This document shows, one piece after another, positions 21,514 to 61,811 of a stretch of DNA of 64,000 bases. Both the position numbers and the translations under genes were made by a program. The first letter of the stretch is position 1, and the number at the start of each line of letters is the position of its first letter. This DNA is from a virus (lineage: Duplodnaviria > Caudoviricetes): the IMG/VR virus record IMGVR_UViG_3300037067_021710. One strand, given 5' to 3'. The notes beneath the pieces are model-generated. The model was not told the origin of the DNA. It did not search any database and worked only from the letters and a program-made list of their open reading frames with translations.

Positions 21514-21518
21514 ATATT

Positions 21519-21591
21519 GGGGGTGACTGGGATTCGAACCCAGAACTTTGCCTTTGTGAGGTAATGTTTTATCCAATAAACTATCTCCCCC
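21519..21591 (-). tRNA. tRNA-like or pseudo-tRNA with an atypical anticodon loop (TCACAAA)
   Basis: Cloverleaf with T arm CTGGG-TTCGAAT-CCCAG; acceptor has one mismatch and an extra G-C pair; anticodon stem mismatch; C at position 33. Confidence 0.55.
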
Positions 21592-21642
21592 GAAATAATT
21601 ACTGGGTCACTCTCCCAGCAGATTCTTTATTGACGTTGGACT

Positions 21643-21736
21643 TGAATGGGGCACGATTCGAACGTGCGTTTTAATAGCAGGTGGTGATTTAATAATTTTC
21701 CCCACTATATGCGATTGACCTCTCCGCCACCCATTC
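21643..21736 (-). tRNA. tRNA-like RNA with an extended irregular anticodon arm
   Basis: Perfect acceptor GAATGGG/CCCATTC, D arm GCG-GAGAGGTCAAT-CGC, T arm GCACG-TTCGAAT-CGTGC; no canonical 7-nt anticodon loop. Confidence 0.6.
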
Positions 21737-41985: not shown

Positions 41986-44900
41986 TTATACCTTTTCTAT
42001 ATATTTTTTAAGTTCATCATTACGAGCTTGAATAGAGGCTAATTCTATTTTCCATTCATTTGGATGGTTTTTCCAATAAGCCCATGATTTTCCAAACCCC
42101 CATATTTCTCCTAATTTAGTATCTACAGTTAACTGAACTTTATTTTCTCCTTTATTTTTATAATATGGATAAGACATCCATCTTTCTGAAATTTCTATTG
42201 CCTCTTCAATTTCAGGTATATAGAATTCACTAACTATTGAATCATGTACATTATTAAGTATACGAGACTTCATATTTTTTTTCTTAAATTCTTTTCTAAT
42301 ATTCCCCATTGCTAAAATTGTAGTTTGCCCAGAAGTTCCCTGAATCGGAGCATTTATACTTGCATTAACTTGGTTACTTAAAATAGATTTCATTTCACCA
42401 AGATATTTTTTCATGAACATATTACCAAAATGTTCTTCTAACGTTTTACAAGTTCTATAAGTGAGTCTTGGAAGGCGTCGTTTTCTACCATACATTGTAG
42501 TCACATAGCCATGAGTTCCACAAAACTTTTTGTATTCATCCATATATTGTTTATATTCTGGGTAAGCATCATAAAAAGCTTCTAATAATTGCTCAGCTAC
42601 TTTTGAATCTATTTTTAATTGTTGGCCTAATCCGAAGCCAGTACTTCCATAAAAAGCAGAAAAATTAACTGTTTTTATTTCACCCCTAAAAGATTCAAGA
42701 AGTTTTTCTTCTTGGCCTTCAATTTTTGTTTTATTATATAATCCTTCATAGGTTAAATCGCAGTCATCAAAAAAAGTATAAAGATCAAATTTATCACCAT
42801 AATGTTCATATAATTTTCTTTCACTCACAAAACGAGAACTCATCCAAGTAGCTATAGTAAATCTGTCTAGAACTTCTGCTACTTTGGCCCCAGTATAACA
42901 ATGCATATCTTTATCATTAAGAATTAAATCTTCAAGGGGGCCTTTTCCAGAAATTTGAGATCCAATTCTAATTTCCATAGCTTGATAATCTTGCTCAACT
43001 AATACAAAACCTTCAGATGGAAGAAAGATTTTTCTAAAACTAGGAGTTTTTGGCATATTTTGAAAATTAACCGTAGCATTTAACCCACCACCACCAGACA
43101 TTCTACCAGTTTTTGTTCCGTATAATTTATACCCACCATAAAGACGCCCTTTATAAATAGAGGCTACAAATCCTTTTTTACTAATCTTTATTGCTTCATC
43201 TTCGATTTCATCAGCATCTTCAATATTTAGAAATTCAGGAGTTTCTTCATCTTCTTTTTCACTAGTACTATTATTTAACTTTATACCAAATTGAGAAAGT
43301 TCTTTTGTAAGATGATTATACACGATAATTTTCTTAGCAAAATCAAGCCCAAAATCAGCATAACAATTCATTGCTTCTTTATTAACTTGAAAGGTTCCAG
43401 CTTTTGTTTTAAATTTTTGTTTTTCAGATTCAGGTAACTTCCTAAATTTAGAAAGGTCATTTAAAAAGTTAGCAACTACTTCACCTAATTGCAAATTACT
43501 TTTTAAATTAAATTCTTTATTTGCTAAGGTATAAATTTCACTTTTAAGGCCTAAAGCTTGAATTTTTAATGACTCTGCATATTCATCTAATTCTTTTTTG
43601 TCAATTTGAGTTCCAGTCATTTCAATATCAGTAATCATTTCAACTGCAGGCATCATTCGTTGGTAAAAATCTTCTTTTACACAAGAATCTTCTAAATCTA
43701 ATCTTCTCAAAAAATATGTATATAATTGATACGTTATTATAGCATCATAACAAGCATATTTAACTAAAATATCTGTAGGCATTTGAGAAAAATCAGCGAC
43801 TTTATGCTCTTTTAATTTATAGTCTTTAACCCATTGTTTTTGCTCAGCTTCATACCCACCTTCAGTTGTATAAATCCAAGCCAAAGCTTTTAAACTATTT
43901 GGACTATTTTCATTTAAAACATGAGCTGCTAACATTGTATCAAAAGTACATTTGGCTTCACTAATTCCTTTTGCTCTAAGAAATTTTAAGTCAAATTGTG
44001 CATTTTGATAAATCCAAGTAATTGCTATATTTGAGAAAAAAGAATTTAAAAGTGCTTTATCAATTTTATCAAAAGGCAAAAAATATCCAGTTATACCATC
44101 ATAAGATAAAGAAATATTATGCAAAGTATCTTCAAAATAATTAAATCCACTTGTTTCAGTGTCAATAGCAATTGCAGTAATAGATTTATTATTTATAAGC
44201 TCTTGTATAAATTTATTTGGGTCATCAATATAGGTAAATTTTAATTCTTGTTTTCTAATTGGTCTTTCATTTGTAGCTTTTATTGCTCTTATAAGCTGGT
44301 CTTTGGACCATTTCCATTCGTAATTATCAAATCCCTGAGTTTTATAAAGAGGGGCAATCGGAAATACTTTACAATTAAATTCTTTTGAATATAACCAGGA
44401 GTCATCAATCATCCAATCTTTTAAAGGATTGTTTTCGCCAAGTTCAGATTTATTAATAGGAACAAAAAAATGCCCACCAACATTTTTTTGTTTAATAGCT
44501 TCAACAATTTTAAACATTGTATTTTCAGTAATAGAATATATTGCTCTACCAGTAGTAACAATAATTTTTGGAGCAATAATATCTATAATTTCTTTTACAT
44601 TTTGTTTTTTACAAGAGACATAAGCCCCAGCAGCCTCATTAATTTTATAATCTTCACTTGCACAACCAACAGCATGAATAACACCATAAGTAAGTTTATG
44701 AACTCGAAATAAATTATCACAGTATTTATAAAAAGGCTTTGTCTTTAAATCCTTTTCTGGATGTTCTAAAAGAAGTAAAACATCAATTTTAGTTTTAGAG
44801 CAATAATTATAAATTTCTTCTGTTCCAATTAGTAACTTAACTAAATTAGCTTTTGAATTAAAAACTCTTAATTCACGAGCTCGACGCAAAGTATCTTGGC

Positions 44901-45108
44901 AGGCTTTCGCTCCTAAAGGGCACCAACATAGCCCTTCTACATAATTTTCATGGGGTTGTTTTTTTGACTTTAATGGAGCTGGAAGTTTTTGTTGGTTGAA
45001 ATTTAAAGGTTGAGAAAGTTGAGAAAGTTCTTGTACAGAACTTTTTTTAATTTTTAAAGAAGATTTTTTTACTTCTTCAGGTTTTTTTTGCTGAAATAAT
45101 TGGGTCAT
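41986..45108 (-). CDS. Family A DNA polymerase with an N-terminal UDG-like domain and 3'-5' exonuclease
   Basis: IDTET, NAQFD, YACYDA; TKTGRMS, DYQAMEIR, KTVNFSAFYG, NAPIQGTS, VHDS; N-terminal PKIIVTTGRA. Confidence 0.92.
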   Translation of the reverse strand: MTQLFQQKKPEEVKKSSLKIKKSSVQELSQLSQPLNFNQQKLPAPLKSKKQPHENYVEGLCWCPLGAKACQDTLRRARELRVFNSKANLVKLLIGTEEIYNYCSKTKIDVLLLLEHPEKDLKTKPFYKYCDNLFRVHKLTYGVIHAVGCASEDYKINEAAGAYVSCKKQNVKEIIDIIAPKIIVTTGRAIYSITENTMFKIVEAIKQKNVGGHFFVPINKSELGENNPLKDWMIDDSWLYSKEFNCKVFPIAPLYKTQGFDNYEWKWSKDQLIRAIKATNERPIRKQELKFTYIDDPNKFIQELINNKSITAIAIDTETSGFNYFEDTLHNISLSYDGITGYFLPFDKIDKALLNSFFSNIAITWIYQNAQFDLKFLRAKGISEAKCTFDTMLAAHVLNENSPNSLKALAWIYTTEGGYEAEQKQWVKDYKLKEHKVADFSQMPTDILVKYACYDAIITYQLYTYFLRRLDLEDSCVKEDFYQRMMPAVEMITDIEMTGTQIDKKELDEYAESLKIQALGLKSEIYTLANKEFNLKSNLQLGEVVANFLNDLSKFRKLPESEKQKFKTKAGTFQVNKEAMNCYADFGLDFAKKIIVYNHLTKELSQFGIKLNNSTSEKEDEETPEFLNIEDADEIEDEAIKISKKGFVASIYKGRLYGGYKLYGTKTGRMSGGGGLNATVNFQNMPKTPSFRKIFLPSEGFVLVEQDYQAMEIRIGSQISGKGPLEDLILNDKDMHCYTGAKVAEVLDRFTIATWMSSRFVSERKLYEHYGDKFDLYTFFDDCDLTYEGLYNKTKIEGQEEKLLESFRGEIKTVNFSAFYGSTGFGLGQQLKIDSKVAEQLLEAFYDAYPEYKQYMDEYKKFCGTHGYVTTMYGRKRRLPRLTYRTCKTLEEHFGNMFMKKYLGEMKSILSNQVNASINAPIQGTSGQTTILAMGNIRKEFKKKNMKSRILNNVHDSIVSEFYIPEIEEAIEISERWMSYPYYKNKGENKVQLTVDTKLGEIWGFGKSWAYWKNHPNEWKIELASIQARNDELKKYIEKV

Positions 45109-45388: not shown

Positions 45389-45892
45389 TTATAAATTTTC
45401 AAAAACAGAATAATCTTCAACTACTAATTTACGAATTTTAACATCACATTCTTTAGCAAAAGTTAAACTTTCGGGGTCTGTTTTATCATAATCATATAAA
45501 TAAACAATTTCCTTTATTCCGCTAATAATCATTAATTTTAAACAATCTTGGCATGGAGATAAAGTTTGGTATACAATTGCTCCATCTAATGAAATACCCT
45601 CTTTAGAAGCTCCTCCGAGCAGAGATTGCTCACTATGAATTTCATATTTTAATGAAAAATTATGGTGGGCTTCTCTCCATTCCTCATGAGTAGCAAAATG
45701 GTCTGGGCAAAGAAGTATATTATCATCGCAGTTAATGAATCCGGGAGGTGTCCCATTAATTCCTGTATATAAAATATGACCCTTTTTAACAGCAACTGCT
45801 GCTACTTTAAAGCTCCTACAATGAGACTGTTTAGAAGCCAAAACAGCTATTTTCATAAACATTAAATCATACTGTTGTTTTTTTGTTTTCAT
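45389..45892 (-). CDS. dCMP deaminase
   Basis: TGINGTPPG, EIHSEQ, TLSPCQDC; likely start MKTKKQ. Confidence 0.88.
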   Translation of the reverse strand: MKTKKQQYDLMFMKIAVLASKQSHCRSFKVAAVAVKKGHILYTGINGTPPGFINCDDNILLCPDHFATHEEWREAHHNFSLKYEIHSEQSLLGGASKEGISLDGAIVYQTLSPCQDCLKLMIISGIKEIVYLYDYDKTDPESLTFAKECDVKIRKLVVEDYSVFENL

Positions 45893-46589
45893 ACCACTCC
45901 ACCATATTATGTAATAGTTGAAAATGTTTTTCATAAATGTGAGCTGTATTAGCTATATAAATTAAAGAGTCTGGTTTTAAATTTGGGTAATATTTTACTA
46001 ATTCACAAAAAAGTTTATTATATACATGGCAGTGCCAAAATAAGTCTGAAAAAAAGCCGTATATAAGATCCATAGATCTTTGATTAACAATATAAATTAG
46101 CTTATCATCTCGTATAAAATGACTTGTAGCAAAAGTACACATAAATTCCTGCATTCCATCTCTACAATAATCGTACTGCATCGAAGGTCTATTATAAATC
46201 ATACAAGATCGACGTGACTCTTTATTTCGTTTTAATTCTTCTAAAGCATTAGAAAATTGATAATAATTCTCCTTTGAAAAAATACACCATCCATAATTCG
46301 AATTTATATTTCCATGTTTATCAGCAATCTTTTTCCATAGGCCAGCTATATTCCCAATAATGTCTACACTTAATGATTGAGATTCATACCACTTTATTTC
46401 TTCTTCACAATATTTAATTGGAGTTTTTCTAACTCCAAAATCAAGAATGGGTTGTGTAGGGTCTAGTTCAATTTTAAAACCTAAAATTTCAACAGTTTTG
46501 CTTCCACTTTTATCAATAACAAAGTCTTCAGCAAGAAGTTTATTATTTAAGGCTTTAAATATTGGATATAATCTGTTTTCATTTGTCAT
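45867..46589 (-). CDS. dCMP hydroxymethylase-like (T4 gp42 family)
   Basis: DKSGSKTVEI, INSNYGW, SRR, IYNRPSMQYDY, EFMCT, RSMDLIYGFFSD (Asp at the cytosine-specificity position), HIYEKHF; start revised to MTNENR. Confidence 0.85.
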   Translation of the reverse strand: MTNENRLYPIFKALNNKLLAEDFVIDKSGSKTVEILGFKIELDPTQPILDFGVRKTPIKYCEEEIKWYESQSLSVDIIGNIAGLWKKIADKHGNINSNYGWCIFSKENYYQFSNALEELKRNKESRRSCMIYNRPSMQYDYCRDGMQEFMCTFATSHFIRDDKLIYIVNQRSMDLIYGFFSDLFWHCHVYNKLFCELVKYYPNLKPDSLIYIANTAHIYEKHFQLLHNMVEWYENKKTTV

Positions 46590-47781
46590 ATGAAAATAGC
46601 CCTTTAATGTCTTTAATAACATTATCAGAAATTGATTCAAATGAACTTTCTTTTTTCACAAATTTTTTCATTTTAATACTTGAATCACTCATATTATCTA
46701 AGGCCAAATTTAATTTTTCACATATACTTTCTGGGGCTATAGGAATATCACAATAATATTCATATTTTGATCCACCCCTTTTTGCATATTCAAAAACTTT
46801 TGGCATTATAATAGTATTTTCACAATAAATAGATTCAAGATTTGCACACCCACCATATCTCTCTATATTATATAAATGAACACTAACCTCAGCTTTCCAT
46901 AGCAATTCAAAATATTCTTGCCTATTTAATGGGTGGTCTTTATAAATTAAAACATTTTTTACATTTTCTTTTAACCATTCAGAAGAATATTTTCCAGATG
47001 GGTTTGTAAATATAACTTGAAAATCATTTCGCTTTTCTGCTAAAAGATTTATTGCTTGTATAAACTCTTCGTGATGAGTATAATTTATTCCTGATAATCT
47101 ATTTAAGAATAAAATCGTTGGTTTATCAAATTTCTCATCAGTTTTATATTTATCAGCTTCTTTAGTAGAAAAACCAAAATCCCATATGGTAGATTTATTT
47201 TTTATAGCACTAGTATATTTACCATTAAATTTCTTTCTTGCATTTTGAATAAAAGCTTTTTTTGTAGATTTACAAGTAAAAACAGCTAAATCACTGCATT
47301 CAAATCCATCGAACTGACGCCAATCATAAGAAATATTTTTGTCTATTTTTTCTTCCCCTATTTCAGGGGCATCTAGCCAATAGCAACAGGAAATTAATTT
47401 TGTTTCTTTGCTCTTATACCATAAATAAGTTTTAATATTTCTTGAAAGTTCTGTTATATTATTCCAAACTACATCAATTTTTGGTAATGGCTTAAACATT
47501 GAGTCAAAATCACCAATATTAAAATGTTGGCGATTGAAAAAAGCATCCACAATAAAATTATAAGGTACCCAATGAATTCGTTCATTAGAGTCTAAAAGTT
47601 CATCATAAGATTTTATATCAGCAAAATCGTTTAATGGGGCAATTAATATATAAAAATGCCAATCAGTTTTTTCAAGAAGCTCTCTTAAAATTCCGCCCAT
47701 CATATTAATATTACTATCAGAAGAAATCCATTTTCCTTCATTATTATAAATTGACTGCTGCAAAATATATAATATATTCAT
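46579..47781 (-). CDS. GT-B fold glycosyltransferase (putative DNA or nucleotide glycosyltransferase)
   Basis: ILFLNRLS, YFELLWKA, ERYGGCANLESI; overlaps the hydroxymethylase gene. Confidence 0.6.
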   Translation of the reverse strand: MNILYILQQSIYNNEGKWISSDSNINMMGGILRELLEKTDWHFYILIAPLNDFADIKSYDELLDSNERIHWVPYNFIVDAFFNRQHFNIGDFDSMFKPLPKIDVVWNNITELSRNIKTYLWYKSKETKLISCCYWLDAPEIGEEKIDKNISYDWRQFDGFECSDLAVFTCKSTKKAFIQNARKKFNGKYTSAIKNKSTIWDFGFSTKEADKYKTDEKFDKPTILFLNRLSGINYTHHEEFIQAINLLAEKRNDFQVIFTNPSGKYSSEWLKENVKNVLIYKDHPLNRQEYFELLWKAEVSVHLYNIERYGGCANLESIYCENTIIMPKVFEYAKRGGSKYEYYCDIPIAPESICEKLNLALDNMSDSSIKMKKFVKKESSFESISDNVIKDIKGLFSYDK

Positions 47782-48278
47782 TAAATAAACTCCAAAATAG
47801 TTGTAATTTGATTCTCTAAATTTTCATCTGTAGTATCTAAAAATAAAACTGGGTTTACTGACTCTTTAAAAAATTTTTGGTAAGCTTTTTGTACATTTTT
47901 AATATCTTTTTTTTGTAAATATTCATCAATATAATTTTTATATTCAGTTTTATAGCAATAAATATAATGTAAATTTACTTCTCTAAATTTTTTATCTTGC
48001 ATAAAAATAAAATCTAAGTCAGTAATTCTTCCAAGTCCTTGAGAATAAGCAAACTCACAGCAGTCTCCGCGATCTCGTATAACAGAATACCTTGTTTGCT
48101 TCAAGAAATTAAAAAAGAAAGAAGATTCATAATGTAAGGCTTCATAATAATCTCTATTAAAATTGTGCTCCATAGGGTTTTTGAAATATGGTATTTCTAA
48201 CCGTTGACTAAGTTCAGTTGCTATTGTAGTTTTTCCACTCTTATCTACTCCGCCAAATACTATGGTAATTTGTCTCAT
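47781..48278 (-). CDS. Thymidylate-kinase-like P-loop NMP kinase
   Basis: GGVDKSGKTT, IRDR, EFAYS. Confidence 0.75.
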   Translation of the reverse strand: MRQITIVFGGVDKSGKTTIATELSQRLEIPYFKNPMEHNFNRDYYEALHYESSFFFNFLKQTRYSVIRDRGDCCEFAYSQGLGRITDLDFIFMQDKKFREVNLHYIYCYKTEYKNYIDEYLQKKDIKNVQKAYQKFFKESVNPVLFLDTTDENLENQITTILEFI

Positions 48279-48835
48279 TTTATAGCTTCTCGCAATTTTT
48301 TGGCTTGTTCATTATAGGCATCAACTCCAACATTATATGAGAAAGCTGCTGGGTGATAAAAAGTTTTGTACGGAATTTTTATATCACTACTTTTTATGAA
48401 AGCATTTGCTTCAGCCCCAAAACTTAATATAACTTTAGGCTTTATTATATCTAATTGAATATTTAGAAAATTTCTGCAATTTATAATTTCTTCTTTATTT
48501 AATTTTGAATTACTAGGTGAAGAGCATTTACAAATATTAACAAAAAACATCCTATTCATTATAAAGTCTTTTCCAAAAATATTTTCAACATATTTTCCTA
48601 CATTACAAATTAACCAATTCTTTTTATATGTTTCTAAAAATTCTTGACTTTGAACTTCAGTATATGAATGTTCTAAGCCAGGATTTCTCATTAGCATAAA
48701 AATATCAAGTTTTTCTGGATCTCCATAGTAAATATGTGGGTATGGAATTGGAGTAACTTCCCTTAATCTAGTACATACATTGCAATTTAATATAGCCTTT
48801 TCGAGTCTTTGTAATTGTAATAATTTTGAAGACAT
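48275..48835 (-). CDS. Uracil-DNA glycosylase family 4/5-like protein (Fe-S Cys pattern)
   Basis: CNVCTRL, RNPG, NICKC, C..FL..QLDIIKPKVILSFG, YHPA. Confidence 0.75.
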   Translation of the reverse strand: MSSKLLQLQRLEKAILNCNVCTRLREVTPIPYPHIYYGDPEKLDIFMLMRNPGLEHSYTEVQSQEFLETYKKNWLICNVGKYVENIFGKDFIMNRMFFVNICKCSSPSNSKLNKEEIINCRNFLNIQLDIIKPKVILSFGAEANAFIKSSDIKIPYKTFYHPAAFSYNVGVDAYNEQAKKLREAIK

Positions 48836-49863
48836 TATACTTTTCCCAGTTTAATCATCTCTCTAACCCAAGGAATTACTTCATCACGCAATATATTTTC
48901 TAAAAGTGTTTTAGACTCAAAGTTTAATATTTCTTTAGCTTTAATAGTGTCAGGAATTCTACACTGTACATCATACTTAAAAGGCTTGTCTGAAATATAA
49001 GAAAATTCCTTTTCAGGCTGAATTAAATTCCAAATTATTTTGGCTAATTCTAGTACAGTAAGCCCTCTATTAGTACTTAAATTAAAATCCTCGTTCAAAG
49101 CTTTTTCAGAAAAAATCGCTTTTTCTATTCCATCAGCAAGATCATTAGCTGGAGTATAGTATCGTATTTGATTTCCATCACCTAAAATCCTAAGCGGGTT
49201 TTGCCCCTTAATTATTTTTTGAATAAAATCAACTACTACATGGCTCATTGCTAATTCTATAGTGCCACTCATTACTTTCTCATCTACTTTGGCTTTTTGT
49301 TCTCCCAAACCCACAGCATTAAAGGGGCGTATAATAGTGTAAGGCAAACCATATTGCTCATAATACCCTTGACAAAAATACTCAACAGATAATTTTTGAA
49401 ACCCATATGTAGAAAGAGGAGGAGAAATTTTTCTTTCATCTCCTTCTTTTGAAGGAAATTTAGTGGCAGATTCATAAACCATGCTAGAAGATATTGCTAG
49501 TATTTTTTTTAAGAAGCCTTTTTTATAAGCATAAATTGCTGTTTTAAAAAAAGTAGAACAAATTTCTTCATTTTCTGAAATTAAGTCTCCAGCTAACTTA
49601 TGAAAAAAACTTATACCACCGATCAAAGCGGCTCCATTAACCATAATTTCAGGCTTATAAAACCATACAAGAAATTTCATAAGAAATTTATTTTTAGCAT
49701 CCATATAAAAATGATGATAATTTTTATGGGTATGATAACTTTTTTTTATTTTCCCATATTTCCAATTATTATCAATTCCAATTACTATATGGCCTTTATC
49801 AAGGAGATTTTGAATAGCATATCCAGCAATAAAACCTTTATCACCTGTCCAAAATATTCTCAT
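48835..49863 (-). CDS. NAD-dependent NDP-sugar epimerase/dehydratase/decarboxylase (extended SDR)
   Basis: TGDKGFIAG, SSSMVY, YGFQK, RPFNAVG, GDGNQIR. Confidence 0.88.
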   Translation of the reverse strand: MRIFWTGDKGFIAGYAIQNLLDKGHIVIGIDNNWKYGKIKKSYHTHKNYHHFYMDAKNKFLMKFLVWFYKPEIMVNGAALIGGISFFHKLAGDLISENEEICSTFFKTAIYAYKKGFLKKILAISSSMVYESATKFPSKEGDERKISPPLSTYGFQKLSVEYFCQGYYEQYGLPYTIIRPFNAVGLGEQKAKVDEKVMSGTIELAMSHVVVDFIQKIIKGQNPLRILGDGNQIRYYTPANDLADGIEKAIFSEKALNEDFNLSTNRGLTVLELAKIIWNLIQPEKEFSYISDKPFKYDVQCRIPDTIKAKEILNFESKTLLENILRDEVIPWVREMIKLGKV

Positions 49864-49870
49864 AATACCT

Positions 49871-51106
49871 CTAAAAATAATTTAAAAGTTTTTTATTAAG
49901 TATTCCCCAACCATCAATTACTATTTTATTTTTTAATATAGATAAATCAATGGTATAATATGATTTATGATTTATTGCAATAATAAGTATATCACTATTT
50001 TTAATAACTTCTTGTAGTTCTTTATTATAAAATTTATAATTATTATAAAAATCATCTACAGGGCCATGAGGCAAATTCGGCTCATTAATATATATTTCAT
50101 TTGGAATATATCGATTTATATACCTTATTAATTTTGGGGTTAAATTATCTCGAGTATCATCAGTATCAGCCTTAAAAGTATACCCAAGAATTCCAATATT
50201 TTTATTTTTAATTTTATCTTTAAGAAGGTCAACATAAAATTTTGGCCCAAATTCATTAACTTTATAAGAACTCATTAGTAAATCTGATTGTGAAAAATTT
50301 TCATTTATCATCCCCCAATCTTTTACCAAACAAGTTCCCTTGCTAAATCCAGGTTTTAATAGTCCTTTATTTCGTGGATAATCTTTATTCATTATTTTTA
50401 ATAATGTATATATATCAACTCCAAAAGAATCTGCAATATAAGAAAAATAATTTGGAATTGACATATTTATATATCTAAAAATATTTGTAAATAATTTAGC
50501 TAATTCAGCTTCTTCAGGAGTACATTGGATAATGTCAACTCCAAAAACTGAAAATATATTTTTTGCTCGTAAATACGAAGCCTCATCATAGGTTCCAATA
50601 ATTTGAGGAAGTGTACTTAATTCTTCATAAGCCTTTCCTTCAGCTAATCGTTCAGGGCACATAGCCAAATAAAAATCTTTTCCACAAACCATTTTTGTTT
50701 TATTTTCAATATACTCTTTAATAAATTTTGTGGTGTTAGGAGCTACTGTAGATCTAAGAACTATGAGAATATCTTTTAATATGGCTTTCTGAACTAAATT
50801 ATCAATCACTCCTTTTACTTGAGATAAATCAGTCTCAATATGCTGCATTAATGGGGTTCCAACAGTAATAATAAAAGCCTTACTTTCTGGATACCATAAA
50901 AGAAGAGAAGCATCTAATATTTGTATTTTTGACTTTTCAAGAAGTTTATCATACCCGGGTTCTAAAAAAGGCATTTTTTTATTATTAACAGAATTAATTA
51001 GGTCTCTATTTAAATCAATAGCCTCAACCGCTAAACCTTTTTCTTCTAATGATAAAGCTAAAGGAAGGCCCACTCTACCACATCCAATAATAGTTACATC
51101 AAACAT
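49871..51106 (-). CDS. UDP-glucose/GDP-mannose/UDP-HexNAc dehydrogenase family
   Basis: GCGRVG, VGTP, RSTV, CPERL, ELAKL, GTCLVKD, FKADTDDTR. Confidence 0.9.
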   Translation of the reverse strand: MFDVTIIGCGRVGLPLALSLEEKGLAVEAIDLNRDLINSVNNKKMPFLEPGYDKLLEKSKIQILDASLLLWYPESKAFIITVGTPLMQHIETDLSQVKGVIDNLVQKAILKDILIVLRSTVAPNTTKFIKEYIENKTKMVCGKDFYLAMCPERLAEGKAYEELSTLPQIIGTYDEASYLRAKNIFSVFGVDIIQCTPEEAELAKLFTNIFRYINMSIPNYFSYIADSFGVDIYTLLKIMNKDYPRNKGLLKPGFSKGTCLVKDWGMINENFSQSDLLMSSYKVNEFGPKFYVDLLKDKIKNKNIGILGYTFKADTDDTRDNLTPKLIRYINRYIPNEIYINEPNLPHGPVDDFYNNYKFYNKELQEVIKNSDILIIAINHKSYYTIDLSILKNKIVIDGWGILNKKLLNYF

Positions 51107-51114
51107 AATCTCTC

Positions 51115-51630
51115 CTATTTATTATCAGTAGACCCAAATCCGCCATCTTTTCGTTCTGAATTTTTATGAAGTTCTAAAATTTGAGTATACTCAACTTCTT
51201 CAGGTATAGCATATGAGACTGGAATTAAAATTGCTTGAATAATTTTTTCATTTTCTTCAAGAGCAACATTTGTATTCCCAGTGTTTACAATAGAAATATG
51301 AATTTGCCCAGAATAATCTTCATCGATAATTTCTGCAAGTCTATCAAGCCCTTTTTTAGTTGCAATTCCAGATTTATTATGCACAGCTAACATATATCCA
51401 GGGCTAAATTTTATATGAATTCCTGAAGGAATTAAAATTCGCTGCTGAGGTTGTAATGAAATATACTTATATTCATTTTTATTATCAACAATAAAATTAT
51501 GTCCTGAGTTTTTTTCTGCTAATTGTTTTACAAACTCTTCAGAAAACTCAGGAATATAAAAATCTATTCCAGCAGACCTTGATGTTCCTCTTGATGGAGA
51601 TTTAACTTTTAGGGTTTTAGCAAACTTCAT
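51115..51630 (-). CDS. dut: Trimeric dUTPase
   Basis: SAGIDF, KSGIA, IIDEDYSG, IIQAI, RKDGGFGST. Confidence 0.9.
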   Translation of the reverse strand: MKFAKTLKVKSPSRGTSRSAGIDFYIPEFSEEFVKQLAEKNSGHNFIVDNKNEYKYISLQPQQRILIPSGIHIKFSPGYMLAVHNKSGIATKKGLDRLAEIIDEDYSGQIHISIVNTGNTNVALEENEKIIQAILIPVSYAIPEEVEYTQILELHKNSERKDGGFGSTDNK

Positions 51631-51941: not shown

Positions 51942-53870
51942 TTAACATTTAACTTCAGGATAACGTTTTCTTTCAGTATATTCCTTTCTCCGTTCTTCAG
52001 ACCACGAGCTTACTGGAACTAAAAAGCCAACAATTCTGGTATATTTTTCTATTATTTTTTTACCACAAATAATACAATGCTTTGTATTATCAATTGTTAA
52101 ATGGCCATCTTCACATTTTTGAAAAAAGTAATTTATAGCAAAATACTGAACACCAGACTTAACTACATACTTAATAATTTTTTTCATTAACGCAGTAGTA
52201 GGAATTTTTTCACCAAGATTTACATGCATAATAGTACCACCCGAAAAATACTTTTCAAAGGTAGCCTGCAATTCTATGCGATTAATAATATCTGTGTCAC
52301 AAGTCAATGGAATAAACTGATTTCCATAAAGCTCAAAAGTATCTTGCTTATACAGTATAGAGTCAACTTTGGCTAATTTTCCAGCAGTCTGCTCAGCAGG
52401 AATTTGTTCTATATTACAACGATAGCCATAGGTTTTAATTTTTTCTTCAGAAATACTTTGCAAAAAAGTTAATATGTCTATTGCAAATTGTTTTCCTCCA
52501 TTTTCATCTGAAGCCATATCATAACCCATAAAATATACAGCTTCATACAGCCCAGTAATACCTAATGTAGAATACTGATTTTCAAGTTTCATAAAACCAT
52601 AAGTATATAAAGGCATTTGATCTTGAGTAATTTTATCTTGTATTAGTTGACGACGGCAATGATTTATTCTATAAGCATCTCTTGCATGCTCATTAAGTAG
52701 TATAAAAAATTTGTCTTTGTCTTTTTTAGCTAATAAGCCAATTCTCGCGAGGTTTACTGTAGTTACTCCAAAAGATCCAACTTTTATTGAACTGCCACCA
52801 ATAAGATTAAAATTTTCTTCTTTTGTAGCTTTAATAATATCTTCCACATTCGATAATAATCTGCAACATGAGCTTAATGCAGTTAAATTCTCTGCGCTAA
52901 AAATATTAAGATGACCAAAATCTAAATTTATTTTACTTATAAAATCTAAAAAGTCAATATCTTCAATGTTTCCTTCACTATCTTTTTTAAATTGAGCCGT
53001 CAATACAGGAAAAGTAAAAATACTTTCTTTATTAAACTCATTAAAAAACTCAAGAAACTTCTTTTGAATAACCATTGCAAAGTCAGCATCTATGCATTCA
53101 CCGTTAATTATATAAGTTTTGCATAACTCCTTTAAAAATATAGAGTCAAAAATAGTGATATTTGTAAATGGGCTCTGAACATCTCGGATCGGCTGATTAA
53201 TTGTATAAATAAATTTTTGAAATTCTTGTCGTAAAAATTTGTCAAATTGTTTTGGAGCATCTTTATATACTGATAAATGATAATTTTTATCATTTAGATC
53301 TTTTTTAAGAAGAGCACTATAAATAACTAAAACATTCGGTATTGCAGTAGCCCCCATCATTTGACGCGAAGCAAACATAACCAATTGTTCTACATGTCGT
53401 AAAAAAGTATCAGCGTGTTTAGCTGGAGATGAGGGTTTATTTGTTATAAATGGAAGACCTTGAGTTACTAAATCTATAGTGTCAAAAGCAAAGCAGTAAC
53501 TCAAAAAGAAATTTGAAAAATCTTGAACATTTAAATCTTTATTTAGTTCTTTTTCACAAAGTTTATTTGCTTCAGAAGTTCCCCACATTTTCTTTGCAGT
53601 TTTCCAAAGTAAATATAAAGAATTTAATTTGTCTAACCCTTTATGAACTTCTGTTTTAAAAGTTGCAATATTTTTTATTTGAACATTAGCATTTGCATCA
53701 ACAGATACATCAGCTACATTCTTCTTTAAAAAGTACCTTTTAGCAAAATTTGTTACATCAAAAGAGTCATCACTTATTCCCTCAAGTTCAAAAACTACTC
53801 GAGGGTATTTATCCTTCATGTCAAGCATAAAATGTTCAAACTGATCATCGTACGACTGCTTAATCCACAT
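51942..53870 (-). CDS. nrdD: Anaerobic (class III) ribonucleoside-triphosphate reductase
   Basis: FTFPVLT, SCCRL, TVNLAR, EQIPAE, CxxxH..CxxC, YTRIVGF glycyl-radical motif. Confidence 0.93.
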   Translation of the reverse strand: MWIKQSYDDQFEHFMLDMKDKYPRVVFELEGISDDSFDVTNFAKRYFLKKNVADVSVDANANVQIKNIATFKTEVHKGLDKLNSLYLLWKTAKKMWGTSEANKLCEKELNKDLNVQDFSNFFLSYCFAFDTIDLVTQGLPFITNKPSSPAKHADTFLRHVEQLVMFASRQMMGATAIPNVLVIYSALLKKDLNDKNYHLSVYKDAPKQFDKFLRQEFQKFIYTINQPIRDVQSPFTNITIFDSIFLKELCKTYIINGECIDADFAMVIQKKFLEFFNEFNKESIFTFPVLTAQFKKDSEGNIEDIDFLDFISKINLDFGHLNIFSAENLTALSSCCRLLSNVEDIIKATKEENFNLIGGSSIKVGSFGVTTVNLARIGLLAKKDKDKFFILLNEHARDAYRINHCRRQLIQDKITQDQMPLYTYGFMKLENQYSTLGITGLYEAVYFMGYDMASDENGGKQFAIDILTFLQSISEEKIKTYGYRCNIEQIPAEQTAGKLAKVDSILYKQDTFELYGNQFIPLTCDTDIINRIELQATFEKYFSGGTIMHVNLGEKIPTTALMKKIIKYVVKSGVQYFAINYFFQKCEDGHLTIDNTKHCIICGKKIIEKYTRIVGFLVPVSSWSEERRKEYTERKRYPEVKC

Positions 53871-54129
53871 CTAAAATTTTACCTCTTTAAATTTATATTT
53901 CTAATTCTTTCTCACTTTTTGTAAATTTATATTCTAATTCTAATTCTTTATCATCTTTCAATTCTTCAATAACCGTTAAAAGAAGCTTAATATTTGGTTG
54001 TATAATTTCACTAAATTCATCCACCCCTAAATGTTGAAAATTATCATGATATTGCTTTGTTAACTCTATTAATATTTCTTTTAATGTAGTGTGATTTTCA
54101 TGATGATAAAACTTCATTTAAAATCTCCT

Positions 54130-54648
54130 TTAATTTTTAAAATAATATATCCCATTGCTACTTAATTTTCTATAATTATAATCATATAACTCTTGATTGC
54201 TACTTGCAAATTGTATATATCCATCATTTTTTATAGAGTGTTGTTGTAAACTCTTTTCAAACTTTCCACATTTTATAAATTGAAAACCTATAATTTTATT
54301 TTCTTTAACATACTCAATTTTATACCCAGTATAAATACAAATATCAAAAGAGTTTCCAAATTGTTTAAGAAAGCTTTTTGTAAACTCTAAATTTCTAGGA
54401 GCTAAACTATCACCACCAGAAAATACTACAGCTTTCGTATCATATTCTTGAGTTTTAATAATAAGAATATTATACAAAGTTTGTCCATCCATATAGGGGT
54501 TTTTTTCATATTCTTGAAGAGTAGAATTTTGGCACTCTACGCAATTATGCTCACAACCTTTAAAATTAACAAGAATTGCAATACTTGACGGATCTGGATA
54601 GTCAATTAAAGTAAAAATTATTGGATAGTGAATACTAACTTGGCTCAT
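54130..54648 (-). CDS. nrdG: Anaerobic RNR activase (radical SAM)
   Basis: GCEHNCVECQN, FSGGD, YTGY, SSNQ. Confidence 0.85.
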   Translation of the reverse strand: MSQVSIHYPIIFTLIDYPDPSSIAILVNFKGCEHNCVECQNSTLQEYEKNPYMDGQTLYNILIIKTQEYDTKAVVFSGGDSLAPRNLEFTKSFLKQFGNSFDICIYTGYKIEYVKENKIIGFQFIKCGKFEKSLQQHSIKNDGYIQFASSNQELYDYNYRKLSSNGIYYFKN

Positions 54649-55229
54649 TGAAGGTAGGCATACAAAGCATCAAATTGGTTTTTAAGGTCTTGTATTGAGC
54701 CACTGTTATTAATAACAAAGTCAAAATATGAATCTGAAACTAAGTCAAGATCAATTTCAGAAATATCAGAATCTACTTCTTTCGAGTCTCTAACTATTCG
54801 TATAGTATAAACGTCTCTATCAGAAAATCGCTTTATTAATTCTGATAGTTCATATAAAAAACGACAATCAGTAACTACTATATTTGAATTAGAAAGACAA
54901 GAATTTTCTTTTATTTCATTCTCTAAAAGATTTACCCAGTAATATTGCCCCATAAGTATTTTTATACTTTGACCGAACCATTGCATCAACGATCGTATAG
55001 TAATTGGTTGGTGAGTAGTAGTATTAATTCCAAGTTCTCTAGACTTATTTGAATAAAAATCTTCTATAGAAATTTCAAAACTAGCAATGTTCTTAGAAAA
55101 TATATATAATTGTTCTTTTAAAGAATCAGCCAACGCCATTTTATAAAAATTTTTTTCTTTAAAAAACTCAGCAAAAGTGTCTTTACCTGAATATTTTTTA
55201 CCAGAAATAAGTACTAATTTTTTTCTCAT
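54645..55229 (-). CDS. Deoxynucleoside monophosphate kinase
   Basis: SGKKYSGKDT, ADSLK, RSLMQWFG, TDCRF. Confidence 0.85.
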   Translation of the reverse strand: MRKKLVLISGKKYSGKDTFAEFFKEKNFYKMALADSLKEQLYIFSKNIASFEISIEDFYSNKSRELGINTTTHQPITIRSLMQWFGQSIKILMGQYYWVNLLENEIKENSCLSNSNIVVTDCRFLYELSELIKRFSDRDVYTIRIVRDSKEVDSDISEIDLDLVSDSYFDFVINNSGSIQDLKNQFDALYAYLQ

Positions 55230-56236: not shown

Positions 56237-57313
56237 TTACCCATAATATTCATTTTCCAATAAATATTTATTATTTATACATTTAAAAGAAATAATTTGC
56301 CCATTAATTAACTTGGTTGATTTAAAAACTATCCCTTCGCGCTCTACCCCAAAAGCCCCTTTGCCTTCTACATATTTAAGAAATTCATCTATAGTTTTCA
56401 TTTCTTGAAATGGATATGATACTCTAATATAGGGAACATGTAATATATTATATTGTTCAAGCCAAATATGAAAAATAAAATTTCTATTATCTCTTGTATA
56501 ATAATGCTGAGTATCAATATTATAAACATCAAATAAATAAAACTCTATTTTAGAAAGTTTTAAAGGATTACCTTGTATTCCTGGACCTACTAATTCTCCT
56601 TGAAGAGCAATATTTTCTCCAAACTCTCTTAAACATTTTTCTATGCATAAGTCATTACCAATTTTTACATAAAGATTTTCATCATTGCCTTGAAGTTTAT
56701 ATTCCATGTTTCTACTACAAACTCCATATTCTCCATCTTTAAGATAAAAACTTACAGAGCTACCATCAATTTTTTCTGTTTCTTCAAATTCAACATTTCT
56801 ATATCCAAAAAATTCTGGAAGATTTTGTAAACGCTCTTGGTCCGTCTTTTTAAGAAAAGAAGGCATGAATCCTTTTACTAAACCTTGAAGTTGAACTGGA
56901 ATAGGGGCTTCATATTTTTTGATTCCGAGGTTATTTGTTAAATCTGTGTTAATGAAAAAATCTTTATGTTCTTCAATTACCTTAAGATCTATTTCAGGTA
57001 AAGCATTAATAAATTCATGAAGAGGTAATAATAGCCCCTGACTTAAAACGCCGCGTAACTTCATTGTACGAAGTCTATATCCTATACTACCATCAGCAGA
57101 AGTTTTTCTACCACGAGACTCTAAAAATAAAAATGGCTCATGACAAGGAAGCAAAGAGTCAACTTCAAAATAAACAGCTAACTCACCTACTTTAAAATCA
57201 CCTTTTTGTACAACACATTGCCATCCAGGTATTTTGCATAATTCAATTTTGTCTGCTTTTTCAATTGGAAGAATCTCTTGTACTTGTCGAATAGTAGCTA
57301 ATTTTCGTTCCAT
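56237..57313 (-). CDS. RNA ligase, DRB0094-type
   Basis: RKLATIR, YFEVDS, KKTDQER, TEKIDGSS, QGELVGPGIQGN, REGIVFK, SFKCINNKYLL. Confidence 0.88.
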   Translation of the reverse strand: MERKLATIRQVQEILPIEKADKIELCKIPGWQCVVQKGDFKVGELAVYFEVDSLLPCHEPFLFLESRGRKTSADGSIGYRLRTMKLRGVLSQGLLLPLHEFINALPEIDLKVIEEHKDFFINTDLTNNLGIKKYEAPIPVQLQGLVKGFMPSFLKKTDQERLQNLPEFFGYRNVEFEETEKIDGSSVSFYLKDGEYGVCSRNMEYKLQGNDENLYVKIGNDLCIEKCLREFGENIALQGELVGPGIQGNPLKLSKIEFYLFDVYNIDTQHYYTRDNRNFIFHIWLEQYNILHVPYIRVSYPFQEMKTIDEFLKYVEGKGAFGVEREGIVFKSTKLINGQIISFKCINNKYLLENEYYG

Positions 57314-59257: not shown

Positions 59258-60463
59258 TTATCTTACATATTCGTTCCACTGGCTTTGTAGTCGTTTCATT
59301 AAAATCTCATCATATAATTCTTTAGGACAAAATCCTTCTTTATCTTCAAAAATATGCTCAAAACATTGTATAATTTTTTGTACACTAAATCGCTCTAAAA
59401 TTATATCTCTATTTCCCTGAGCTTTAATATAATAGGCTTCTTTGTCTTCTTTCCATAATTTATATAATGAAGCTAATCCTACAATAGAATCTCTGATTAG
59501 AGGTACTCCATAATATGAACCGTATTCATAATTATGATGATACATACTATGAGCTTCATCTAATACGTATTTAACAGAATAATTTACAGGAGACTTAGCA
59601 ACTTCAGCAGATGAAGACCAGTTTGTATAAACTACTGGAATTCCACATAGCATTGATTCTACAGCAGGTAAACCAAAACCTTCACCACGACTTAAAAATA
59701 GTAATACTGAAACTGATTTATATAAAGTCACCATTTCTTCAGAAGTTAATTCTTTATTTATAGTGTATATTGAAGTATTTTTACATTCCATATTAGTTTG
59801 AGCACAGCATTTTATTAAGTCTTCTACAGAAAATTCTATATCTGAAAGTAAGTGGTATTTCATTACTAAACGAGAGTCTTTTGTAACCCCTAAAGCTCGT
59901 GAATAAGCTATGATTGAGTCCTCTACTCCTTTACGTTTCGTATTTTGCCCTACAAAAAGCACAGTAAATTTCTCTTCTTGTTTCTTAATTTCTAAATCAG
60001 TAAGAGTATATTTAGAAAAATCAACATAAATTGGAAAATAATAAACTTTCTTTTTTGTTAAATTTAAAAGTTGATTTCCAATAAAATATGAAGAGGCTAC
60101 AAACCCATCAAAAAAAGTAGAGTCATCAAATAAGAAAGACCAAGCTCTTGGAAGTGGTAAAGTTTCCCATAATATATTTAAAAATTTTCTTTTACAATTT
60201 CTCATTAAATGATATAATAATTCTTTATCAATAGGGTTTAACAATGAGAATGGATTAACAACTAAAAACCCGATATCAAATTCATCAGCATTATCTAGAT
60301 TTTCTTTAGAAATTTGTTCTAAAGTATTTACTATTGTTAATTTAGAAATTGTCTTTTGAGACATCATCATTGAAAATATTGTAACAAAACTTGCTGAGGC
60401 ATTTCCATACCCAGCATCTTTTGATGAAAATCCTTGAGTAGGTGCAATTAATAAAACCCGCAT
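59258..60463 (-). CDS. GT4-family glycosyltransferase
   Basis: WET, VGQNTKRKG, SRGEGFGLPAVESMLCGIPVV. Confidence 0.85.
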   Translation of the reverse strand: MRVLLIAPTQGFSSKDAGYGNASASFVTIFSMMMSQKTISKLTIVNTLEQISKENLDNADEFDIGFLVVNPFSLLNPIDKELLYHLMRNCKRKFLNILWETLPLPRAWSFLFDDSTFFDGFVASSYFIGNQLLNLTKKKVYYFPIYVDFSKYTLTDLEIKKQEEKFTVLFVGQNTKRKGVEDSIIAYSRALGVTKDSRLVMKYHLLSDIEFSVEDLIKCCAQTNMECKNTSIYTINKELTSEEMVTLYKSVSVLLFLSRGEGFGLPAVESMLCGIPVVYTNWSSSAEVAKSPVNYSVKYVLDEAHSMYHHNYEYGSYYGVPLIRDSIVGLASLYKLWKEDKEAYYIKAQGNRDIILERFSVQKIIQCFEHIFEDKEGFCPKELYDEILMKRLQSQWNEYVR

Positions 60464-60494
60464 TATTTATCTCCAAATTTTTTAAATTCTATTA

Positions 60495-61790
60495 TCACAT
60501 AATTCTCTTTAATTTAAGTTTTAACAAAGGGTCAGAGCTTCCACCATCATAATTTTTTTCAATAAGATCGATAAACTGTTTTCCAACTATATCCCACGAA
60601 AATCGTTGAATATATTGATATCCTAACAATCCAAGCCTTTCTGCTAAACCTTTATTTGAAATTATTTTAGCCATCTGCTTTGCACAATCTTCAGTATCTG
60701 CAATTGCAAATTTTATTGCTGCATTAATTGCATACGTAAAGTCATTCACTTTAACTGGAAGGCCTATGCCTCTACAGTATTCCACATGCCCGCCATAATC
60801 TATATAAATCACTGGTTTTTTATGAAGCATAGCTTCTACATACCCATAACCAAAACCTTCACCACCAGAAAGCCCAACAAAACAATCACTTACTTGAATA
60901 CGTCTATATAATTCTTTTTTAGACATCCCAAAATTTGTTTGATACCCCATAGGAAAAAAGACACTTTGATTAAGACCGTAAAGAGTGACTACATCTAAAA
61001 GGTCTGTACCACCATCTTGACTCGCAACCCCAGTATGAATATATAATTTATATTTATTTTTAGAGTCAGAAACTTTTTGTTTAAATTTAGCAAAAGCTTC
61101 TATTATTTTACCAAGCATTTTTCTTTCACCATTTGTTGCTACAGTAAAAAACACAAAGTCATCATTCGAAAATCCATTTCCAAAAACTTCTTGTTTAGTA
61201 AGTTTGTCAGTAATTTCATTCTTAAAATCGTAGTCTACATCAATACCAAGGCTTATTGGAATTGTAGGAGTTAACCCTAAATTTTCTAAACAAGACTTGC
61301 CCATAGATGTACAAGGGACTAACAAATCTGAAGTATTTAAAATGTCTTTAATTGATTTTCTTGGGGCTGGAGCAATTGGAGTTGGAAATAAACAGTGCTC
61401 TGGATATTGAGGAGTCTCAATAGTTACATAGTCAACCCAATAAAAAGACTCTCTAAAAAGACAATATGCTAAAGAATCTTGTAACCAAGGATCTATCATT
61501 GAAATAACAAGATCTGGATTATAAGTCTCAATTGCATTGTTAAATAATTGAGAAGTTTTTGAATCTAGTATCTGGGAATTAGTAATAAACATGGTGTTAG
61601 CTAATTCTCTAAAGTCTTCCCCATGAATAAGCATCCCTTCTCTAGTAGTGTCCATTCCCGATAATGTAGCATACCCTATTTCATAGTTTCCTGTTTTATA
61701 AAATTGCTTAATAAGAGAAACGTTTACATAAGCAAGACCAGATATATAGTTAAGACTTTCTCCACAAAATAAAACTTTTAATTTAGCCAA
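60495..61790 (-). CDS. GT4-family glycosyltransferase
   Basis: ATNGERK, SGGEGFGYGYVEAMLHKKPVI, FSWD. Confidence 0.85.
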   Translation of the reverse strand: MAKLKVLFCGESLNYISGLAYVNVSLIKQFYKTGNYEIGYATLSGMDTTREGMLIHGEDFRELANTMFITNSQILDSKTSQLFNNAIETYNPDLVISMIDPWLQDSLAYCLFRESFYWVDYVTIETPQYPEHCLFPTPIAPAPRKSIKDILNTSDLLVPCTSMGKSCLENLGLTPTIPISLGIDVDYDFKNEITDKLTKQEVFGNGFSNDDFVFFTVATNGERKMLGKIIEAFAKFKQKVSDSKNKYKLYIHTGVASQDGGTDLLDVVTLYGLNQSVFFPMGYQTNFGMSKKELYRRIQVSDCFVGLSGGEGFGYGYVEAMLHKKPVIYIDYGGHVEYCRGIGLPVKVNDFTYAINAAIKFAIADTEDCAKQMAKIISNKGLAERLGLLGYQYIQRFSWDIVGKQFIDLIEKNYDGGSSDPLLKLKLKRIM

Positions 61791-61811
61791 AGTACAACTC
61801 CTAATTTTTCC

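Follow-up and report, generated by a model that had tools for sequence, protein, structure and literature searches.

A phage gene cassette predicted to attach a phage-made acidic sugar to 5-hydroxymethylcytosine

The thymidylate synthase (TS) homologues of phages RB69 and DLP3 form 5-hydroxy-dCMP, using flavin and O2. Two positions, numbered as in Escherichia coli ThyA, help to read such enzymes: Asn at ThyA-169 is diagnostic for 5-hydroxy-dCMP synthesis, and an acidic residue at ThyA-143 goes with hydroxymethylation, admitting water to give a hydroxymethyl rather than a methyl product (Lee et al., NAR 2026, PMC13326640). In other systems, "subclass II" pairs of a glycosyltransferase (GT) and a sugar epimerase, taken from metagenomic phages, made 5-HexA-methylcytosine (433 u) in E. 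coli, and many metavirome GT-B enzymes adjoin ThyS genes (bioRxiv 10.1101/2023.12.21.572611). Here we describe a cassette of eight open reading frames (ORFs) from an uncultured phage of roughly 165 kb (Duplodnaviria; Caudoviricetes; IMG/VR record IMGVR_UViG_3300037067_021710). The DNA analyzed is a stretch of 64,000 nucleotides, called the window below. The cassette encodes a homologue of the T4 hydroxymethylase gp42 together with a nucleotide-sugar dehydrogenase, an extended short-chain dehydrogenase/reductase (SDR), a nucleotide kinase, a GT, a protein resembling uracil-DNA glycosylase (UDG), dUTPase, and dCMP deaminase.

We think it fairly probable that this cassette replaces cytosine with 5-hydroxymethylcytosine (5hmC) before replication, and then adds a phage-made acidic sugar on the DNA. 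A first reading of the window, made from sequence alone (hereafter the sequence-only reading), had proposed an eight-gene cytosine-modification block directly upstream of the DNA polymerase gene, with dTMP supplied separately by the flavin-dependent thymidylate synthase ThyX. The ORF list, domain scans, and structure models bear out all three points (Table 1). From the gene identities, catalytic residues, folds, and synteny, which were established directly, we infer each enzymatic step, the donor sugar, the timing on DNA, and the full replacement of C.

The steps would be as follows. The gp42-type enzyme would convert dCMP and methylene-tetrahydrofolate to 5-hydroxymethyl-dCMP (5hm-dCMP), which would be phosphorylated by the cassette kinase, possibly together with a T4 gp1-type deoxynucleotide monophosphate kinase (DNMK) encoded nearby. 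The polymerase would incorporate the resulting 5hm-dCTP, while dUTPase, dCMP deaminase, and ThyX would hold dUTP low and supply dTMP. In the sugar branch, the 6-dehydrogenase would oxidize a host UDP-hexose, likeliest UDP-N-acetylglucosamine (UDP-GlcNAc) or UDP-N-acetylmannosamine (UDP-ManNAc), to a uronic acid, and the GalE-like SDR would epimerize this product, probably at C4. After replication, the GT-B enzyme would act on duplex DNA, moving the acidic sugar onto the 5hmC hydroxymethyl group, and the glycosylated genome would be shielded from host nucleases. The UDG-fold protein, which has Asn in motif A like MUG, TDG, and SMUG1, probably removes uracil or 5-hydroxymethyluracil (5hmU) arising from deamination.

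A more specific version can be offered only tentatively. In virion DNA, 5hmC would bear an O-linked N-acetyl-hexosaminuronic acid such as N-acetylgalactosaminuronic acid (GalNAcA) or N-acetylmannosaminuronic acid (ManNAcA), giving a nucleoside of ~474 u. The sugar would be made by a phage UDP-N-acetylhexosamine (UDP-HexNAc) 6-dehydrogenase and a 4-epimerase, and attached by an unannotated family of cytosine-C5 O-glycosyltransferases that would also serve 5-hydroxycytosine (5hoC) pathways and travel with the kinase and a glycosylase of altered specificity. To our knowledge, no acidic amino sugar has yet been reported on any DNA.

The prediction of the base comes from the gp42-like protein, whose residues are counted from the ATG at 46589, a likelier start than the TTG at 46640. 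Residues 17-233 of its 240 match the structure of T4 gp42 (1b49; E 7.9e-53). Cys151 (FMC) aligns with T4 Cys148, and Asp182 (GFFSD, the ThyA-177 position) aligns with Asp179 of T4 GFRND. At the ThyA-143 position the protein has Glu148, in QEFMC, where T4 has Asp. At the ThyA-169 position it has Asp174, in RSMD; the Asn that marks 5-hydroxy-dCMP synthases (D169N) is absent. The protein was aligned with three gp42-type enzymes (from phage RB32, phage Muldoon, and a Klebsiella Jiaodavirus), RB69 gp48, and homologues from related loci. Identity to the first three is 41.6-43.4% (41-46% across T4-like gp42), versus 22.4% (22-23%) to RB69 gp48, which shows RSQN.

By structure match and aligned residues, then, the TS-fold protein is a true homologue of T4 gp42, as the sequence-only reading had held on the strength of its motifs, including the Asp of GFFSD. 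Because Asp169 is kept, and because identity is 41-46% to gp42 but about half that to RB69 gp48, the predicted product is 5hm-dCMP and the predicted base 5hmC, not 5hoC. The earlier reading had allowed either base. Its first option stands, supported by the gp42 residues and identity, and 5hoC was rejected on the Asp at the ThyA-169 position. Its remark that some T4 relatives arabinosylate 5hmC is outdated: the arabinose of RB69 is on 5hoC. The anaerobic ribonucleotide reductase NrdD and its activase NrdG, encoded nearby, fit folate chemistry better than an O2-dependent hydroxylation.

The sugar branch is likewise phage-encoded, as had been proposed. The dehydrogenase is intact: it scores 267.2 bits against TIGR03026 (cut-off 189.8), and has three domains, a conserved Rossmann motif, and the catalytic Cys259 in GTCLVKD. 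Its best solved relatives are the UDP-ManNAc dehydrogenases 4r16 (1.6e-41) and Cap5O (2e-38), whereas structures of UDP-glucose dehydrogenases match far more weakly (~4e-25 to 1e-12). Cellular homologues (47-50% identity) carry the JGI label WecC-type; one directly follows a UDP-GlcNAc 2-epimerase gene, and another lies inside a WbpA/B/E/D-like set for diacetamido-uronic acids. At the level of clade, this places the dehydrogenase with the predicted UDP-HexNAc 6-dehydrogenases and not with the UDP-glucose dehydrogenases. (The SDRs beside the cellular homologues are 23-24% identical to the phage SDR, and joint acquisition of the two genes is not demonstrable.)

The phage SDR has as its best solved match the Thermotoga UDP-hexose 4-epimerase 4zrm (1.4e-24), with which it aligns over its full length. 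Its active site comprises the Ser in SSSMVY plus YGFQK; the TSE Glu of the UXS and ArnA decarboxylases and the TDE of the 4,6-dehydratases are both absent from it. The enzyme looks like a nucleotide-sugar 4-epimerase, not a decarboxylase, and the most likely donor is an epimerized UDP-(N-acetyl)hexuronic acid. The sequence-only reading had listed a uronic acid, an amino-uronic acid, or a pentose. The clade of the dehydrogenase favors the acids; the pentose was down-weighted, and is unlikely, because the SDR has SSSMVY and YGFQK without the decarboxylase Glu.

These data also bear on the best placed of the alternatives, which retains the 5hmC pathway on DNA but has the GT transfer a neutral sugar (a hexose or HexNAc epimer) or a decarboxylated pentose, the dehydrogenase serving some other purpose or intermediate. 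Most characterized phage DNA glycosyltransferases do transfer neutral sugars; UXS-type decarboxylases occur among the partial SDR matches (~4e-14); and in its distant branches the GT family is combined with other sugar modules, such as the aminotransferase and methyltransferase of locus L020, described below. Against this, the dehydrogenase retains its Cys and three domains and adjoins the SDR in most relatives, and for a pentose in particular the SDR lacks the required Glu and aligns end to end with 4-epimerases. We consider a neutral sugar or pentose improbable. Inside their cassettes, close relatives carry a methyltransferase dependent on S-adenosylmethionine (Methyltransf_23 or FkbM type), which suggests that the sugar is additionally methylated there; the window has none.

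The cassette kinase contains the P-loop GGVDKSGKTT and a DR motif, with Pfam kinase scores below cut-offs; G10, D12, K16, D69, and R70 are invariant in nine homologues. Its AlphaFold model (predicted local distance difference test score, pLDDT, 91.5) finds Bacillus subtilis YorR (3kb2) as its top Foldseek match, followed by thymidylate kinases (TMK). Similarity to RB69 gp45 is marginal or nil. A gp1-type DNMK was not found in the records of five relatives, one of them a complete genome of 178 kb bearing terminal repeats, whereas among the relatives examined the TMK-like kinase is always within the cassette. The simplest proposal is therefore that it acts as the 5hm-dCMP kinase, with the gp1-type DNMK a possible second route from 5hm-dCMP to the diphosphate.

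The polymerase gene that accompanies the cassette belongs to family A in the window, and to family A, family B, or the Pol III alpha type in relatives (Table 1). Among close-relative cassettes the change of family looks like replacement in place. Copying by a family A polymerase, as the sequence-only reading put it, thus describes the window (where the enzyme matches Klenow-type structures at ~1e-29) and does not hold for the system as a whole. Exchange of families A, B, and C fits incorporation of the small 5hm-dCTP followed by glycosylation on DNA; it gives no hint that the polymerase is adapted to a bulky nucleotide.

A second alternative would have the GT act on 5hm-dCMP, the kinase phosphorylate the glycoside, and the polymerase incorporate the product. 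It would give a role to a second nucleotide kinase that adjoins the GT despite the presence of the gp1-type DNMK. Yet the five relatives without a DNMK match keep the cassette kinase, which is simpler to understand as a 5hm-dCMP kinase; the polymerase exchange would be unexpected if a bulky dNTP were required; and glycosylation occurs on DNA in every studied case (T4; RB69 and DLP3 per PMC13326640). Glycosylation of the nucleotide is accordingly rated as quite unlikely.

The block of dehydrogenase, SDR, (UDG), kinase, GT, and TS is found again at IMG/VR loci L002-L011 and on a JGI contig; with dCMP deaminase added, it keeps the same order in L003-L008, L011, and the JGI 175-kb contig. Most often the genes run dehydrogenase, SDR, (UDG), (methyltransferase), kinase, GT, TS, dCMP deaminase, DNA polymerase. 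This recurrence indicates that the cassette arrangement is not due to chance. A gene resembling GIY-YIG homing endonucleases lies between the kinase and GT genes in two of these loci (L002:8320-9006 and L003:9318-10004).

For the GT itself, no sequence match was found in Pfam, PHROG, or NCBIfam, by tblastn to 50,697 phage records, or among PDB sequences at E up to 10, including T4 alpha-GT (GT72) and beta-GT (GT63). The AlphaFold model (pLDDT 95.1; predicted template-modeling score, pTM, 0.93) shows a GT-B fold of the GT4-like kind, with two Rossmann-like domains. Its Foldseek neighbors are PglA, MshA, sucrose-phosphate synthase, and BshA (E 5e-13 to 1e-10; template-modeling score, TM, up to 0.71), and the top structural neighbor in BFVD has a TM of 0.80. 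The protein contains the motif E307-x8-E316 (compare the E-x7-E type), and R84, K145, R228, and E316 are invariant; a few members of the family match PF00534 or PF13692. Close relatives number more than 110 in metagenomes and none in GenBank phages. A profile search of 1.84 billion representatives retrieved 797 clusters at E<=1e-3, 376 of them at E<=1e-10.

What unites the family is its company. A TS homologue lies within ~5 kb of the GT, and mostly adjacent, in 15/15 informative loci (the window plus 14). It adjoins the GT or is at most two genes away in L002-L012 and the JGI 175-kb contig, and distant members sampled blind (L018, L019, and L020; E 1e-85 to 1e-32) have TS homologues nearby too. 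Moreover, Asp occupies the ThyA-177 position in all 15 GT-linked TS homologues with a readable active site. We propose that the GT is a DNA 5hmC O-glycosyltransferase; its family looks like one of general O-glycosyltransferases for C5-modified cytosine, with exchangeable sugar modules.

The linkage to TS argues strongly against a role of the GT in lipopolysaccharide or virion-protein glycosylation. The alternative in question treats the dehydrogenase, SDR, and GT as an auxiliary module, placed by chance, that glycosylates virion proteins or host surface polysaccharide. Its attractions are that the structural neighbors of the GT are cell-envelope and small-molecule GT4 enzymes, that the cellular dehydrogenase homologues are located in polysaccharide loci, and that 65% of metagenomic GT hits have no base-modification neighbor (bioRxiv 10.1101/2023.12.21.572611). 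It fails to explain an Asp177-type TS homologue next to or near the GT at every informative locus, when these loci span diverse phages (some with a T4-like capsid, others with no capsid detected; polymerases from family A, B, or C), and flippase, polysaccharide polymerase, or lipid-carrier genes are not in the cassette. This explanation is a shade less probable again than glycosylation of the nucleotide.

At one distant locus (L020:4981-12017), a member of the GT family is accompanied by SDR, methyltransferase, DegT aminotransferase, and HhH-GPD DNA glycosylase genes; the TS homologue of this locus shows RSQN, the published mark of 5-hydroxy-dCMP synthases, and the set hints at 5hoC decorated with an amino sugar. 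For the window, a 5-hydroxy-dCMP synthase of the RB69/DLP3 type, with the sugar ether-linked to the C5-OH, is the least probable explanation of all: the kinase, GT, and TS triad is the same as in 5hoC clusters, and this distant GT relative does sit with a D169N enzyme, but the window protein keeps Asp169 and the identities of a T4-type hydroxymethylase, and the hydroxylation requires O2, yet the phage encodes an anaerobic ribonucleotide reductase.

The UDG-like protein scores 42.9 against TIGR00758 (cut-off 125.3). The Fe-S cysteines (CxxC and CKC) and motif B (YHPA) are kept; motif A reads MRNPG in place of GEAPG. The pattern x-x-N-P-G is kept in the window and six relatives (MRNPG, GRNPG, GENPG, GINPG, and GLNPG). 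Asn in motif A is typical of MUG/TDG (GINPG) and SMUG1 (GMNPG), enzymes that excise U, T, and 5hmU. Judged by these motifs and its Pfam match (Table 1), the protein has the UDG fold and is not a canonical family 4 member; it is proposed as a DNA glycosylase that accompanies the modification and removes deamination products.

The window polymerase has an N-terminal extension of ~290 residues (44239-45108) with no Pfam match. The first ~300 residues of the polymerase, compared pairwise with the separate UDG-like protein, match it only weakly (E 0.006). UDG-fused family A polymerases occur in SP15-like phages with modified thymine (PMC13697223); there is no solved SP15-like polymerase among the structures whose sequences match the window polymerase.

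Several observations count against 5hmC carrying an acidic sugar, or against parts of that proposal. First, no T4 gp56-type dCTPase was identified within the 64-kb window, so that exclusion of dC may be incomplete. Second, the substrate of the dehydrogenase is a clade-level guess, because all its NCBIfam equivalog scores, though ordered like the structure matches, are far below cut-offs: 178.8 against 750 (an archaeal model) and 152.8 against 459 for UDP-ManNAc dehydrogenase, and 135 against 670 and 116 against 700 for UDP-glucose dehydrogenase. Third, identity of the SDR to characterized epimerases is only 20-25%. Fourth, the GT has no similarity to the proven DNA glycosyltransferases (T4 alpha-GT and beta-GT, and the N-terminal half, p047, of RB69 gp46:47), and its profile aligns with the GT of Maribacter phage Molly at an hhalign probability of 0.1. 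Finally, with two further GT4 genes at 59258-61790, the final glycan could differ or be larger.

These two GT4 genes, together with a PP-loop ATPase-like gene, occupy 59258-62513, just after an SNF2 helicase gene. One of the two also matches the "GT4 in conflict systems" model, and a TACTAATAA motif precedes the pair. The first (59258-60463), the only one searched for, has a homologue in one of five relatives' records. The pair may add a second sugar to DNA or may act on virion proteins.

The eight cassette ORFs (45389-51630) are packed tightly or overlap, all on the minus strand; the polymerase gene is directly downstream, and NrdD, NrdG, and the gp1-type DNMK are encoded upstream. Scans of the cassette ORFs against Pfam, PHROG, and NCBIfam assign six of the eight. 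The dUTPase scores 92.8 against TIGR00576, slightly below the cut-off of 102.55, and may additionally supply dUMP or dCMP. The true start of the dCMP deaminase is probably an internal Met near 45862. Operon boundaries were drawn solely from gene packing: a scan for sigma-70 promoters and terminators over 41.5-56.5 kb gave chance-level results only, and the motif TACTAATWA (11 observed, 6.3 expected) is not significantly enriched and does not occur within the cassette. A distant blastn search with the cassette against the 50,697 phage records gave short matches only, covering 3-5%, and the phage has no close cultured relative. Elsewhere in the window are genes for a tRNA repair pair, a T4-like polynucleotide kinase-phosphatase with an RNA ligase (32505-33416 and 56237-57313), and three clustered tRNA genes at 21440-21736: Asn, Cys(ACA), and Ser.

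Table 1. Coordinates of the cassette, its neighbors, and corresponding features at related loci. Positions without a locus prefix are those of the window; Pfam bit scores quoted singly are above the gathering cut-off.
Feature	Coordinates	Strand	Evidence or remark
dUTPase, trimeric	51115-51630	minus	PF00692 60.8 bits; phrog_135 1e-28; motifs AGIDF, IIDEDYSG, GGFGST
NDP-sugar 6-dehydrogenase	49871-51106	minus	PF03721 + PF00984 + PF03720; TIGR03026; UDP-HexNAc (WecC/WbpA/Cap5O, COG0677) clade
Extended SDR, predicted nucleotide-sugar 4-epimerase	48835-49863	minus	PF01370 98.8 bits
UDG-like protein, family-4-like fold	48275-48835	minus	PF03167 34.7 bits (cut-off 24.3)
P-loop kinase, 165 aa, YorR/thymidylate-kinase-like	47781-48278	minus	AlphaFold model and Foldseek
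GT-B (GT4-like) glycosyltransferase, 400 aa	46579-47781	minus	AlphaFold model and Foldseek
gp42-like dCMP hydroxymethylase (predicted), 240 aa from ATG	45867-46589	minus	1b49 match; diagnostic residues
dCMP deaminase	45389-45934	minus	PF00383 68.4 bits; phrog_174 9e-44; zinc motifs HSE + PCQDC
Family A DNA polymerase, 1040 aa, with 3'-5' exonuclease domain	41986-45108	minus	PF00476 198.8 bits; PF01612 71.7 bits
NrdD + NrdG, anaerobic ribonucleotide reductase and activase	51942-54648	minus	PF13597 316 bits; PF13353 49 bits
T4 gp1-type DNMK	54645-55229	minus	PF21448 74.2 bits
ThyX, flavin-dependent thymidylate synthase	5594-6220	minus	RHRLAS motif; PF02511 134.7 bits
Family A polymerase after cassette, relatives	L003:12392-15064; L009:10577-12220		
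Pol III alpha (PHP + DnaE type) after cassette, relatives	L004:12428-15202; L008:14473-17871		
Family B polymerase, relatives	JGI 175-kb contig; L019:10319-12787		After cassette in the JGI contig; ~3 kb downstream of the GT in L019
Cassette methyltransferase, relatives	L003:8116-8805; L004:8816-9493; L006:8752-9471; L007:9362-10000		
Molly_1 cassette (NC_062751)	L001:9001-15016		Dehydrogenase, SDR, 473-aa GT, and 359-aa TS homologue adjacent

Both the general principle and 5hmC bearing a hexuronic acid have precedents; the advance here lies in breadth and in new enzymes. New are the joining of a pre-replicative gp42 route to a phage-encoded 6-dehydrogenase of the HexNAc clade, and a GT family notable for its size, its missing annotation, and its fixed kinase and glycosylase companions. 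This family comprises ~800 clusters, has no Pfam model and no isolated-phage match, and is apparently dedicated to C5-modified cytosine. Its sugar modules appear interchangeable: here a dehydrogenase and epimerase, in close relatives the addition of methyltransferases, and in distant relatives aminotransferase routes. The cassette provides a handle on the TMK-like kinase that adjoins the first GT (in RB69 and DLP3 as well), on why a DNA glycosylase accompanies such pathways, and on the freedom with which replicative polymerases of families A, B, and C are exchanged on 5hmC genomes. Hypermodification makes phage DNA resistant to restriction enzymes and CRISPR nucleases, and the enzymes behind it are a source of tools for DNA labeling and sequencing.

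How, then, does the locus compare with known systems? With T4 it shares a gp42 homologue having the same catalytic and specificity residues, a gp1-type DNMK, a dCMP deaminase, and the proposed logic of making 5hm-dCTP first and glycosylating the DNA afterwards. It differs in its GT, unrelated by sequence to T4 alpha-GT and beta-GT; in a sugar donor that would come from phage enzymes, where T4 uses host UDP-glucose; and in its family A polymerase, its use of ThyX for dTMP, and the lack of a gp56-type dCTPase in the window.

With the experimentally studied clusters of RB69, DLP3, and RL38J1 the cassette shares a set of three neighboring genes, for a YorR/TMK-like kinase, the first GT-B enzyme, and the TS homologue (Lee et al., NAR 2026, PMC13326640), as well as an NDP-sugar pathway of its own and a position close to the DNA polymerase gene. 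The DLP3 kinase also matches 3kb2 and 4s35. In contrast to the Asp169 of the window, the TS homologues of these phages are D169N and make 5-hydroxy-dCMP via flavin and O2, and their arabinose or galactose/glucose is provided by isomerase, kinase, and uridylyltransferase rather than by dehydrogenase and epimerase. The RB69 GT, compared through the annotated N-terminal half (p047) of gp46:47, has no sequence similarity to that of the window.

The metagenomic GT and epimerase pairs of the 2023 preprint, compared here by description, resemble the pathway proposed for the cassette: the DNA GT needs its partner epimerase, and a hexuronic acid is placed on 5hmC. Their 5hmC is post-replicative, made by a methyltransferase and a TET-like dioxygenase, in contrast to the pre-replicative gp42 type of the window, and their UDP-uronic acid came from the E. 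coli pool, whereas the window encodes a HexNAc-clade 6-dehydrogenase. The suggestion in the sequence-only reading that the base may be undescribed is weakened, as 5-HexA-methylcytosine has already been made (bioRxiv 10.1101/2023.12.21.572611); it holds only if the sugar is an N-acetyl-hexosaminuronic acid.

The DNA of Bacillus phage SP-15, which has a UDP-glucose dehydrogenase gene, likewise bears glucuronate attached to a modified pyrimidine; in SP-15, however, the pyrimidine is thymine, modified via a dihydroxypentyl linker and a phosphodiester. In the cultured flavobacterial Maribacter phage Molly (Molly/Colly, Molycolviridae), the genes for dehydrogenase, SDR, GT, and TS homologue follow one another as they do in the window. 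Its dehydrogenase and SDR are 31% and 24% identical to those of the window, and its GT is without profile similarity. The Molly TS homologue apparently has Asn near the 177 position, suggesting dUMP as substrate, so that Molly may hypermodify thymine instead. The paper describing its isolation does not discuss DNA modification. As a cultured phage with an analogous cassette, Molly nonetheless offers an experimental entry point.

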